A DNA stretch of 64,000 nt from the NCBI GenBank assembly GCA_965221165.1, contig CBDCRP010000003.1, positions 1,728,001 through 1,792,000 on the forward strand, written 5' to 3'. The position numbers and the translations under genes are program-made. Below, piece by piece: positions 14,748 to 16,925 of the stretch. Below the pieces are notes generated by a model. It made no database searches. It had not been told where the DNA came from and saw only the letters and a program-made list of their open reading frames with translations. Origin of the DNA: a bacterium (GTDB taxonomy: Bacteria > UBA8248). Every line of letters starts with the position of its first letter. The stretch's first letter is position 1.

Positions 14748-15098
14748 GGCGGCGACCGGCTGGTCGGCGGCGAGGGCAAAGACCGCATCTACGGCCGCTA
14801 GGGCAAAGACACCCTCACCGGCGGAACCGGGGACGACACGCTCACCGGCGTGGCCGGGGCCGACACCTTCGTGTTCAACCCCGATGACGGGAACGACACG
14901 ATCGCCGATTTCGAAAACGGCGCGGACAAGATCGATCTCTCCGCCGTCTCCTCGATAAGCGGGTATTCCGACCTCACGATCACGCAGGAGGGCGACGACA
15001 CGAAGATCGACTTGAGCGCCCACGGCGGGAGCGAGATAATACTCGATAATTTCACCTCGACCGATCTGGACGCGTCGGATTTCGAGTTTGGGATGTAG
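14748..15098 (+). pseudogene. 5'-truncated RTX (hemolysin-type Ca-binding repeat) gene with in-frame TAG
   Basis: Reads GGDRLVGGEGKDRIYGR*GKDTLTGGTGDDTLTGVAGADTFVF...DASDFEFGM; TAG at 14799-14801; no start codon between in-frame TGA 14688 and 14748. Confidence 0.75.
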
Positions 15099-15209: not shown

Positions 15210-15620
15210 ATGACGGACGAAACCAAAATAGGCACTGAGTTTGGCGACGTATTATATGGCGGCGAAGGCGACGACGAATTGTATGGCGGCGCGGGCAAAG
15301 ACCAGCTGTTCGGTGGTGATGGGGACGACACCATCGAGGGCGGCGAGCGCGGCGACATACTCACCGGTGGGGCCGGGGCCGACACCTTTGTATATTCCAC
15401 CGGTGACGGAAGAGACACGATCACCGACTTCACCGACGGGGAAGACAAGATCGACCTCTCCGGGACCGGCATCACCAGTTTTGACGACCTGACGTTCAGG
15501 CAGGATGGGAACGACGCCGTGATCGACCTCGGCACCAGCGACAATCCCGACGACGTGATCCTGCTCGAGAACTTCGATATGAACAACTTCGATGCATCGG
15601 ATTTCGACTTTGGGATGTGA
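15210..15620 (+). CDS. Small RTX-repeat calcium-binding protein, likely T1SS substrate
   Basis: GGxGxDxL nonapeptides ([32 protein letters not shown]), [15 protein letters not shown]-terminal ASDFDF; AGGAG RBS. Confidence 0.85.
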
Positions 15621-15722: not shown

Positions 15723-15896
15723 GTGTCTCGGGATGAAAAATTCTCTACCCCTCACTTGCGCACAGAGACATCCATCCTCAGGCCATGAGAAGCAGAGTAA
15801 TACCGATTGACGAAGGGAGGGATTGGCGCGTCATTCCGGCGTAGGCCATTAAATGGCTACGAGAGATGAGATGGGCCGCCGGGTCTGCCATATCGA

Positions 15897-15991
<95 letters not shown>

Positions 15992-16088
15992 GCGTCATGT
16001 GGCTACTCGGACAATCGCGAATCGACCATGCGGGGATTTGTATATCACGGACAATGCTGAACTGTCAGTCCGGCATTCACTTTTCGCC

Positions 16089-16117
16089 TTGACTTTTCCT
16101 CTCACTTTTTCGATGAT
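16089..16117 (+). promoter_or_regulatory. Sigma70-like promoter divergent from tRNA-Ser
   Basis: TTGACT (16089) - 17 bp - GATGAT (16112). Confidence 0.55.
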
Positions 16118-16122
16118 CCCAA

Positions 16123-16297
16123 GTACGTCAGAAAGGAGGTGATCCTAATATGAAAATACACTGTAGGGACGAGGTGACCGGCGCCTAGGGGAGAGAGCCC
16201 TGAGGAGATTCCCCCGGGTTCATTCTTCGCCCAGGCGAATCCCCACCAGGTCACCGAACGATGTGAAACCCCGGTCCGAGAGGGCCGGGGTTTTTCA
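16123..16297 (+). ncRNA. Candidate structured small RNA / micro-ORF transcript
   Basis: Between promoter and terminator; AGAAAGGAGGTGATCC at 16130-16145; GGTGACC 16173 pairs with GGTCACC 16249 and encloses two hairpins. Confidence 0.5.
16150..16188 (+). CDS. 12-aa micro-ORF MKIHCRDEVTGA
   Basis: ATG directly downstream of an extended Shine-Dalgarno; TAG at 16186-16188. Confidence 0.4.
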   Translation: MKIHCRDEVTGA

Positions 16298-16302
16298 CGT
16301 CG
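16259..16302 (+). terminator. Rho-independent terminator
   Basis: AAACCCCGGTCC-GAGA-GGGCCGGGGTTTTT, extendable by CGATGTG/CACGTCG. Confidence 0.75.
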
Positions 16303-16363
16303 CGCCATTTGCGAAACTCTCACTTTTCACATCATCTGTTTTCAAGGATAAGGAGCGCGTTTC

Positions 16364-16822
16364 ATGTCTCAGACGAGTTGGACGGTCTATCTTTCAGGAG
16401 AAGTGCACACCGACTGGCGCGAGCGAATCACCGAGGGCGCGGAGAAGGCGGGGCTGCCGATCACCTTTCTCGCCCCCGTCACGGACCACGACGCGAGTGA
16501 CGATTGCGGCGTATCGATTCTCGGCGGTGAGGAAAAACCGTTCTGGAAAGACCGCAAGGGCGCGGGCGTGAACGCCATCAGAACGCGCACGCTGATTGAA
16601 AAGGCCGACGTGGTGGTCGTTCGCTTCGGGGAGAAATACAGGCAGTGGAACGCCGCGTTCGACGCGGGCTACGCGGCGGCTCTGGGAAAAGCCGTTATCA
16701 CCTTACACGACCCGGGCCACACCCATGCGCTCAAGGAAGTCGACGCCGCCGCCATGGCCGTGGCCGAAGAACCCGAGCAGGTGGTGCGGATTCTGGGCTA
16801 CGCCATCAACGGAACTTTATAG
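16364..16822 (+). CDS. YtoQ family protein (nucleoside 2-deoxyribosyltransferase-like fold)
   Basis: VYLSGEVHTDWRE, RFGEKYRQWNAAFDAGYAAALGK, HALKEVD; AAGGAG RBS. Confidence 0.85.
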   Translation: MSQTSWTVYLSGEVHTDWRERITEGAEKAGLPITFLAPVTDHDASDDCGVSILGGEEKPFWKDRKGAGVNAIRTRTLIEKADVVVVRFGEKYRQWNAAFDAGYAAALGKAVITLHDPGHTHALKEVDAAAMAVAEEPEQVVRILGYAINGTL

Positions 16823-16925
16823 AGGGCGTATATATTTGCCCCTCTCCGGGGTCTTCGCCTGCGCGCATTTATCCCGAATCAACGGCGCCACACCCTGAGC
16901 CACCTTGGGCGTGGGACGCATATCT

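Follow-up and report, generated by a model that had tools for sequence, protein, structure and literature searches.

The window analysed here is a stretch of 64,000 nt of bacterial DNA (contig CBDCRP010000003.1, lineage UBA8248), and all coordinates refer to positions within it. Between a divergent tRNA gene and a ytoQ-type gene, which starts 68 nt past the element's terminator on the same strand, lies a small element predicted to give an RNA of ~171 nt (16125–16295, + strand, from the predicted start to the end of the U-tract). It combines a 16 nt complement of the 3′ tail of 16S rRNA, i.e., an extended Shine-Dalgarno (SD) sequence, with a 12-codon open reading frame (ORF), a set of conserved helices (P0 to P3) and an intrinsic terminator. 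These features, the flanking genes and the contigs found in RNA runs are collected in Table 1.

Table 1. Features of the element, its flanking genes and the contigs placed on it from RNA runs (window coordinates).
Feature	Position	Strand	Sequence or extent	Basis or remark
tRNA with long variable arm (flank)	15902–15991	−		Rfam match at gathering threshold
Sigma-70-type promoter	16089–16094 and 16112–16117	+	TTGACT, 17 nt spacer, GATGAT	Motif and conservation
P0, 5′ strand	16126–16129	+	CGUC	Transcript positions 2–5; pairs with 16168–16171
Extended SD, 16 nt complement of 16S tail	16130–16145	+	AGAAAGGAGGTGATCC	Exact match to own 16S
Psd (tentative), 5′ strand	16144–16147	+	CCUA (SD tail)	With UAGG 16164–16167 would enclose the start codon
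Short ORF, 12 codons	ATG 16150, TAG 16186–16188	+	MKIHCRDEVTGA	Frame conservation
P0, 3′ strand	16168–16171	+	GACG	Codon 7 and first base of codon 8
Internal SD-like sequence	16171–16177	+	GAGGUGA	6 nt separate GAGGUG from the last sense codon
P1, 5′ strand	16173–16181	+	GGUGACCGG (DNA GGTGACCGG)	Compensatory changes
P2, 5′ strand	16183–16189	+	GCCUAGG	Holds stop UAG; covariation
P3 hairpin	Stems 16192–16199/16217–16226	+	Variable apical loop 16200–16216	Covariation
P2, 3′ strand	16230–16236	+	CCCAGGC	Covariation
Conserved unpaired C-rich internal loop	16237–16245	+	GAAUCCCCA	Family consensus GCGAAUYCC
P1, 3′ strand, anti-SD-like	16246–16255, A16248 bulged	+	CC-A-GGUCACC	Compensatory changes
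Intrinsic terminator	16266–16295	+	12 bp stem 16266–16277/16282–16293, GAGA loop, five U (16291–16295)	Folding, covariation
ytoQ-type gene (flank)	16364–16822	+		PF11071, 2e-65
Run X1, contig	16144–16308		177 nt	
Run X2, contig	16144–16330		186 nt	
Run X4, contig	16137–16318		184 nt	
Run X5, contig	16167–16308		162 nt	

The promoter and the GNRA-capped terminator named in the initial annotation are both in place. The promoter match of 9/12 is by itself not above chance (1 found against 0.8 expected), and a simple terminator scan did not list the hairpin at 16266–16295, so that both calls rest on conservation. TTGAC, a spacer of 16–18 nt and a −10-like hexamer are kept in 28 of 29 copies from family f1, and the distance between the end of the −10 hexamer and the 16-mer is 11–12 nt in 28/28 f1 copies and in 104/112 copies from other phyla. 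In the window, the 16-mer begins 12 nt after the −10 hexamer and ~5 nt from the RNA start, which promoter geometry places at A16125, 8 nt past the hexamer. The terminator is supported by folding and covariation, its stem being 99.2% paired across f1 with five pairs changed on both sides.

The single 16S gene of this genome ends in ...GGATCACCTCCTTTCT followed by AAGGAG, and the 16-mer is therefore the exact complement of the presumed mature 16S tail of the organism itself, as had been anticipated from the common 16S end. It is found twice in 3.69 Mb (both strands), once in the element and once on the strand opposite the 16S gene. Among the other matches anchored on GGAGG, the longest in the genome are of 13 nt (one), 12 nt (one) and 11 nt (nine). 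The predicted duplex energy is −28.4 kcal/mol for the 16-mer against −8.7 for GGAGG alone. The RNA itself contains no 16 nt partner for the 16-mer. A minus-strand 16S fragment was rejected as an explanation, as the flanks outside the 16 nt, compared by eye, are unlike the 16S end.

Homologous loci were collected with a pattern that leaves out the SD (GAGGTGRC, N7, TAG, gap, GCNAATYCC, gap, CACC; one genome per species), which returned at least 118 stretches. Two alignments were made: A1, of 30 family copies over their whole length, and A2, of 137 distinct core sequences. As the pattern leaves out the SD, what the collected loci show at the SD is independent of how they were found. In a check for selection on 137 sequences, positions 2–15 of the 16-mer were able to pair with GGAUCACCUCCUUUCU in 136–137 of the 137. 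At positions 3, 4, 5, 8, 13 and 15 there are 228 pairing-preserving substitutions versus one that breaks pairing, and all 228 are A-to-G opposite U or C-to-U opposite G. The number of contiguous compatible pairs is 16 in 120 sequences, 15 in 16 sequences and 11 in one. As this is the substitution pattern expected opposite an invariant RNA strand, the comparison indicates that the 16 nt complement is under selection. The exact tail word also occurs in four other genomes (once each in G068, G070 and G108, six times in G069) and was not found in G067; these sites are word matches, with the 16S gene ends presumed. Three loci from the phylum of G067 (L183, L184 and L185) have an extra base in the SD (GGAGG-U/A-UGAUCC), so that a full duplex with the 16S tail would require a one-base bulge.

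The start codon follows 4 nt after the 16-mer and opens the 12-codon frame already recognised in the initial annotation. The frame was surveyed in 148 loci (the 30 family copies and 118 of the pattern matches; 145 distinct sequences), counting ATG, GTG and TTG as starts and leaving aside others such as CTG. In 145 of the 148 loci, the TAG closes the frame opened by the first start past the SD. Exactly 12 codons are found in 142 frames, from both phyla, while one has 13 and two have 19. The start is ATG in 70 loci, TTG in 68 and GTG in 8, and in most copies it lies 8–10 nt after GGUG. The three exceptions are L037, which lies at a contig start, L142, in which the 5′ part is replaced, and L154, which has TTC at the start position. 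Both L142 and L154 are of mycobacterial type and look damaged; in L142, unrelated sequence stands in place of the promoter, leader and SD.

Seventeen further loci were found solely with a covariance model, which is blind to reading frames. In all 17, the first start is in frame with a stop three codons after GAGGUG, a check that itself demanded GAGGTG, 9 nt and a stop. These ORFs are 11, 14, 16, 17, 18 or 19 residues long and end in TAG (10), TGA (6) or TAA (1). Because all three stops occur, the stop is not tied to one release factor, and a stop sensor specific for release factor 1 is ruled out. Within the peptide, residues 2–7 vary widely (W, R or C at position 5; C, R, G, S or D at position 7), and the nucleotides NGGAC stay while the amino acid changes from W to R. 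Glu-Val at positions 8–9 is invariant, its codons being the GAGGUG of the P1 5′ strand, and this constancy is partly imposed by the search pattern. The internal GAGGUGA is likewise invariant in A1. To judge from these alignments, the frame is conserved as a frame and the peptide sequence is not.

The homologues also allowed the fold to be examined by covariation. A model made up of P0, P1, P2, P3 and the terminator reaches 97.3% pairing across f1, and 12 of its pairs have changed on both sides. P0, first indicated by mutual-information screening of anchored columns, is 96.1% paired on A2, its variable pairs being AU 103/GC 32/UA 1, CG 112/UA 25 and AU 54/GC 26/CG 25/GU 3/UA 1. It appears in a U-A version (CACUG/CAGUG) in copies from the phylum of G067, and as CGCG/CGCG in a second family of the window's phylum. 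P1, in which GGTGACCGG pairs with CC-A-GGTCACC as initially described, is 95.5–96.4% paired (96.4% on A2) and has CG 82/GC 19/UG 18/UA 11 at its last pair; it covaries in f1 (AU 22/GC 6 at one pair, GC 23/UA 3 at another). P2 encloses the stop codon in f1 and in other phyla. It is 98.9% paired in f1, with two pairs changed on both sides, and shows CG 134, UG 102/UA 29, GC 127 and CG 89/GC 27 on A2. The two parts of the P3 stem are 94.3% and 94.1% paired in f1, with three pairs changed on both sides. Conserved homologues in which P0, P1 and P2 covary were thus obtained from the homologue search with covariation analysis that the initial annotation had proposed.

A further helix, Psd, may be formed by the SD tail and would enclose the start codon; it is tentative. 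Its counterpart in Actinomycetota (GUCC/GGAC, the SD tail with codons 5–6) has GC in 104 sequences and AU in four, the latter representing four GAUCC/GGAU compensations. Taken as a set, P0, Psd and P1 are 94.8% paired on A2 versus 27–44% with the partners slid, and none of 500 shuffles was as high. In many actinomycete copies, inspected by eye, the apical loop of a long 3′ hairpin holds GUCC, the same word as the SD tail. This loop is complementary to the GGAC of codons 5–6 and could be a second partner for it; the hairpin type is absent in the window's family.

The C-rich loop between P2 and P1 is near-invariant in both A1 and A2, GCNAATYCC being part of the search pattern. Words of at least 6 nt complementary to it occur inside P3 in 34% of 123 sequences versus 5% of shuffles. 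The complementary words are GAUUC (16207–16211) and GGGUUC (16216–16221) in the window; copies from Mycobacterium and Nocardia have GGAAUC or GAUUCGC. Pairing between the interior of P3 and the C-rich loop could represent a pseudoknot or an alternative fold; its registers vary, and it is lacking in Streptomyces.

Other folds were considered. The initial annotation had P1 closing a junction with two inner hairpins. The complementary words for these do exist, but the hairpins are only 85.8% and 86.0% paired and break in other genera, against 98.9%, 94.3% and 94.1% for the P2/P3 rod. The better supported fold is therefore a rod of stacked helices, ahead of a three-way junction. A leader helix with the GUG of the SD core is 99.8% compatible, but only by way of one-sided wobble changes, and P0 was preferred. 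GGTCACC may alternatively pair with the SD, and the data favour neither partner: at the one informative position, 122/137 sequences fit the SD and 128/137 fit P1.

By BLAST, the element is present in 22/22 genomes of the genus and in 33/36 other genomes of the family, and in 0/24 genomes outside the family. A covariance model (R1), based on the 137 sequences of A2 and on helices P0, P1 and P2, reached further. It matched in 43 of all 51 genomes of the window's phylum; leaving aside the window's own genome, these divide into 37/41 in the family, 5/7 in the second family and 0/1 in each of two others. Of 150 genomes sampled evenly from the phylum of G068 (Actinomycetota; the record is from Mycobacterium), 72 had a match, as had 12 of 121 from the phylum of G067, which carries the Terriglobales-type locus L157. 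The larger of these searches used stricter Infernal filters, and their counts are lower bounds. The empty outcome in genomes of other phyla (0/15) carries no weight. Six of the actinomycete positives come from genomes flagged as unpublished (66/144 without them), as does L058, one row of A2 and R1; statements on the Terriglobales type rest also on L157/G067 and on L176–L185.

No second copy was found in the window's genome. In the sample from Actinomycetota, every positive but one has a single copy; the other, G211, carries two on two contigs and is the only genome seen with two. Gene neighbourhoods were compared through Pfam scans of nine other loci (six from Actinomycetota or Terriglobales records, three from other genera of the family), as clustering of stop-to-stop ORFs was too noisy in high-GC DNA. 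Neighbours include Aminotran_4/GCV_T, PNPOx/PAS, THAP4_heme-bd/ABC, purK/purE, SLT, AA_kinase, Sel1/HTH-cupin and URO-D, and no Pfam neighbour was shared among these nine loci. At three of the nine (L114, L075 and L031), the first gene recognised downstream lies in convergent orientation. With its own conserved promoter and terminator, a single copy and no conserved neighbours, the element is an RNA gene that occurs once and is transcribed on its own, in agreement with the stand-alone transcript described at the outset.

Within the family, one neighbour does recur. The divergent upstream tRNA, Ser(GGA) by reading of the anticodon loop in the alignment, also lies just upstream and divergent in other family genera (L031, 1238–1326; L033, 2037–2127; L036, 1233–1303); it is the only conserved neighbour of the element, and is so within the family only. 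In one genus of the family, a signal-recognition-particle RNA gene (L033, 3080–3155) is found ~1.4 kb from the element. Elsewhere in the window, two adjacent ORFs on the + strand (14850–15098 and 15210–15620; 82 and 136 residues) have GGxGxD-like glycine/aspartate repeats, both end in ...DASDFxFGM, and look like small calcium-binding repeat proteins.

At Rfam gathering thresholds, the neighbouring tRNA was the only match, and the initial annotation had assigned the element to no recognised family. A permissive scan alters this. The best match is RF02471 (Ms_IGR-5), an actinobacterial small RNA (sRNA) found in Mycobacterium smegmatis and catalogued for more than 10 years, with 23.5 bits and an E value of 0.0017 on 411 bases. 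The match is full-length and collinear (model 1–184 to 16125–16310), and the element is the best match in the whole genome (E 0.0035). Words common to the printed consensus and the element are the GGAAGGAGGUGGUCC start, a short frame ending in ...GAGGUGGCUGCCCGCUAG, and GCGAAUUCCCCGCAGUCACC. Seven of seven tested actinomycete loci, collected with the SD-free pattern, score 68–179 bits on RF02471 and align with f1 copies. Outside Actinomycetota, scores descend from 43.8 (L176) and 42.0 (L036) through 33.8 (L180), 29.9 (L031) and 29.1 (L157) to 23.5 in the window. On the strength of the full-length match and this descending series, the element is, by alignment, a diverged homologue of RF02471 just missed by Rfam's actinobacterial model, and the two have a common architecture.

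Among the 80 pattern matches with listed titles, nearly all are from Actinomycetota, and those listed include Mycobacterium, Streptomyces, Nocardia, Rhodococcus, Pseudonocardia, Kitasatospora and Nocardiopsis. Also among the matches listed are one record titled Terriglobales and three copies of family type, including one with the title 'uncultured Nitrospinaceae bacterium'; a second copy of Terriglobales type (L157) is a match outside the titles listed. A ribosome-profiling (Ribo-seq) study (PMC4974804) describes, for two mycobacteria, 'significant ribosomal reads' on their Ms_IGR-5 homologues, and RNA-seq or transcription-unit support for Streptomyces homologues is mentioned in the portions available of two others (PMC8079986, PMC8780764). 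No function, ORF or ribosome link for Ms_IGR-5 was stated in the literature searched, which did not include the original description and supplements, and literature searches under the sRNA names that might apply to the syntenic site in M. tuberculosis returned nothing.

Six runs recorded as RNA, and a seventh guessed to be RNA, contained a small share of the sampled words. Four of them, from sponge and marine metatranscriptomes, were placed on 15850–16900; X1 and X5 belong to one study, X2 and X4 to two others. Each gave one short contig from a close relative, with 4–11 differences from the window, and in X4 and X5 the ytoQ-type gene is a separate contig. The intervals 15994–16136 and 16354–16454 are uncovered in all four runs, gaps in contig cover being no sign of silence. 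Contig depths are 2–6 and, where a run shows the neighbouring gene as well, about the same for that gene, contig depth being a poor measure of abundance. In low-depth assembled contigs of this kind, strand, start and end are not resolvable and DNA carry-over is possible. Short contigs confined to the element, in four runs from three studies, hint weakly at a discrete RNA with a length of ~165–185 nt or more.

We favour, at about even confidence, a translated, ribosome-gated regulatory RNA made from an independent gene of ~171 nt, a diverged branch of the Ms_IGR-5 lineage. A 30S subunit would dock very tightly at the extreme 5′ end of the RNA, since a 16 nt pairing with the entire single-stranded 16S tail starts ~5 nt from the RNA start. 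The start codon, 4 nt after the 16-mer, would then open the 12-codon frame; P0, starting 18 nt past the A of that codon, would bound the region of initiation. Codons 7–12 and the stop are buried in three stacked helices, P0 (joining the 5′ end to codon 7), P1 and P2 (holding the stop). Because these codons lie in covarying helices, every ribosome that reads the frame would have to unzip P0, P1 and P2 as it elongates, which agrees with the translation-coupled fold suggested in the initial annotation. With the ribosome at the stop, 6 nt would separate GAGGUG from the P-site codon downstream of it; this spacing resembles that at initiation and may allow a second SD-type contact with the anti-SD. 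The RNA may therefore alternate between a closed rod and a ribosome-opened form, the latter freeing the 3′ strands (YCACC) while a ribosome is on the frame and perhaps presenting the C-rich GAAUYCCC loop differently. This ribosome-gated change would be the function, with the RNA either reporting translational capacity or being controlled by it, and the freed or closed 3′ domain would act on another RNA or a protein.

Several points weigh against this interpretation. We infer 30S docking, translation in this organism and the gating itself from sequence, and the C-rich loop is without a known target. The sequences compared are related, so that counts overstate their independence; the search pattern demanded GAGGUG, the TAG and the loop words, and their constancy in the 118 loci taken from it is partly a matter of construction. 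Conservation of the frame could partly follow from a constraint on length at the RNA level, given the 142 ORFs of equal length. P0 is only 4 bp long, and Psd (CCUA/UAGG) is 88.2% paired in f1 with zero compensatory changes. The score of 23.5 bits lies below the curated 45-bit gathering cut-off of RF02471. The RNA runs offer contigs only, which begin inside the SD (16137–16144) and run 13–35 nt past the U-tract, so that the ends at 16125 and 16295 are still predictions.

Other explanations share parts of this evidence. The RNA might simply park ribosomes, occupying the anti-SD tail and keeping a 30S subunit or a 70S ribosome on a track that leads nowhere. Ribosomes are slow to escape from very long SD duplexes, and here the strong SD, a structured start and stable downstream helices would act together, with the ORF merely letting the ribosome leave; the purpose would be to buffer or store ribosomes or to protect the 16S 3′ end. 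Conservation of the full complement, through changes that with one exception preserve pairing, fits this, as do the gap between −28.4 kcal/mol for the duplex and −8.7 for the SD core, the lead of 3 nt over any other SD match in the genome, and helices that begin at codon 7, near the edge of an initiating ribosome. It is harder to reconcile with a single gene copy, with contig depths (a poor measure) of 2–6, close to the neighbouring gene and giving no hint of near-ribosome abundance, and with a conserved C-rich loop and P2/P3 domain that parking would not need. We consider it unlikely. A wider version, that of an ancient ribosome-dedicated RNA present in at least three phyla and acting as a gauge or parking device for free ribosomes, is speculative and has, in our judgement, a similarly low probability. 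One ribosome would be held on a closed track of fixed length, from the hairpin at the start codon to the helix at the stop codon, with the full free 16S 3′ tail paired and a second SD-like contact at termination. To our knowledge, the factors so far recognised in such a role towards free ribosomes are all proteins, for instance hibernation factors.

Somewhat less probable is a base-pairing sRNA whose SD and mini-ORF would serve solely as a 5′ stabiliser against 5′-end-dependent decay, in the manner of STAB-SD, while the C-rich loop would act on target mRNAs without translation. Every lineage does have the SD ~5 nt from the predicted 5′ end, the conserved unpaired loop would suit such pairing, and the principle is documented, 30S binding blocking RNase J1 according to the text available of PMC4113751. 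RNase J (TIGR00649), however, was not found at E <= 0.001 in this genome, which is 96.3% complete; STAB-SD directs no initiation, whereas an in-frame start and stop are conserved here, and an ORF end woven into conserved helices would be superfluous in a pure stabiliser. The micropeptide gene raised in the initial annotation, with the 12-residue product as the functional molecule, is improbable. A strong SD, a conserved frame (exactly 12 residues in 142 ORFs) and invariant Glu-Val at positions 8–9 speak for it, but residues 2–7 vary freely, the length ranges over 11–19 residues in other lineages, the Glu-Val codons coincide with the P1 5′ strand and are partly pattern-imposed, and nucleotides are kept where amino acids change (NGGAC, W to R). 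Least probable is a leader-peptide attenuator or cis regulator of the ytoQ-like gene, which had also been put forward. A short ORF and a terminator do lie 68 nt upstream of the same-strand PF11071 gene, and the RNA contigs run 13–35 nt past the U-tract. Neighbours, however, are not conserved at the nine other loci, and this, with the convergent downstream gene in three of them, excludes a general attenuator role. Furthermore, no antiterminator was seen by eye or in the folds, no dedicated search having been made, no run covers 16354–16454 between element and gene, and the ORF is free of runs of one regulatory codon.

Under the ribosome-gated reading or otherwise, selection on the 16S complement, the in-frame short ORF and the helices P0–P2 locking codons 7–12 and the stop appear to be new. 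The ORF, the full-length 16S complement, the P0–P2 architecture and the presence outside Actinomycetota are unmentioned in the literature searched; the original description and supplements lay outside that search, and any of these may be in print there. The Ms_IGR-5 lineage reaches well beyond Actinomycetota, and comparison across phyla exposes its conserved core, i.e., the 16S-tail complement, a mini-ORF conserved in frame, and helices burying the end of that ORF. An anonymous sRNA thereby becomes a testable hypothesis on ribosome-coupled RNA function, with well-studied actinomycetes among its carriers, and the alignments provide a basis for a wider Rfam model with a corrected consensus structure.

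Compared with RF02471 itself, the order of parts is the same: a short leader, an anti-16S SD of 15–16 nt, a 12-codon ORF ending xEVxxx-stop, P1, loop and 3′ hairpin. Both have a P1 with a YCACC 3′ strand and the GCGAAUYCC loop, P0, P1 and P2 covary jointly, the promoter-to-SD distance is equal, and both are stand-alone genes with an ORF of 12 residues. The element differs in belonging to another phylum, in its leader and P0 (CGUC/GACG against CACA/UGUG), in having a single hairpin as P3, and in ending with a plain U-tract terminator where actinomycete copies have a long branched hairpin with a GUCC loop. The printed consensus structure of RF02471 pairs the SD with the ORF end.

CC2171 (RF01867) is a stand-alone alphaproteobacterial sRNA, validated by Northern blot, whose regulating condition and function are given as unknown in the text seen of its report (bioRxiv 10.1101/2022.01.24.477521). 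The element scores 18.6 bits on this model against a cut-off of 75 bits, with only the SD and terminator aligned and the middle of the model skipped; elsewhere in the genome, two sites score higher and one slightly lower. Like the element, CC2171 carries GAAAGGAGGUGAUCC and then a start codon at its 5′ end and finishes in a terminator, but its printed consensus is without a GAGGUG/YCACC helix. It is treated here as a possible analogue with the same 5′ design, and not as a relative.

In STAB-SD of the Bacillus thuringiensis cry3A mRNA, an SD-like 16S complement is likewise close to the RNA 5′ end, and the bound 30S subunit protects the RNA (PMC4113751, as far as its available text goes). It starts no translation, whereas the element keeps a start codon and frame, and the nuclease it blocks, RNase J1, is without a detectable homologue in this genome. 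Dual-function or liberated attenuator sRNAs such as rnTrpL of Sinorhizobium meliloti also combine a short ORF and a terminator in a small transcript, and, according to the part of PMC6614838 consulted, can act in trans; in contrast to these, the element is without a linked operon, regulatory codons, a conserved peptide or a known trans target. Extended SD sites of Staphylococcus aureus, described by cryo-electron microscopy in the accessible portion of PMC13009471, show start-proximal pairing beyond the core SD, and the pairing of the element also reaches beyond the core. Those sites are ordinary mRNA starts, while the complement described here spans the whole 16 nt tail, on an RNA of non-coding size, and is conserved across phyla.

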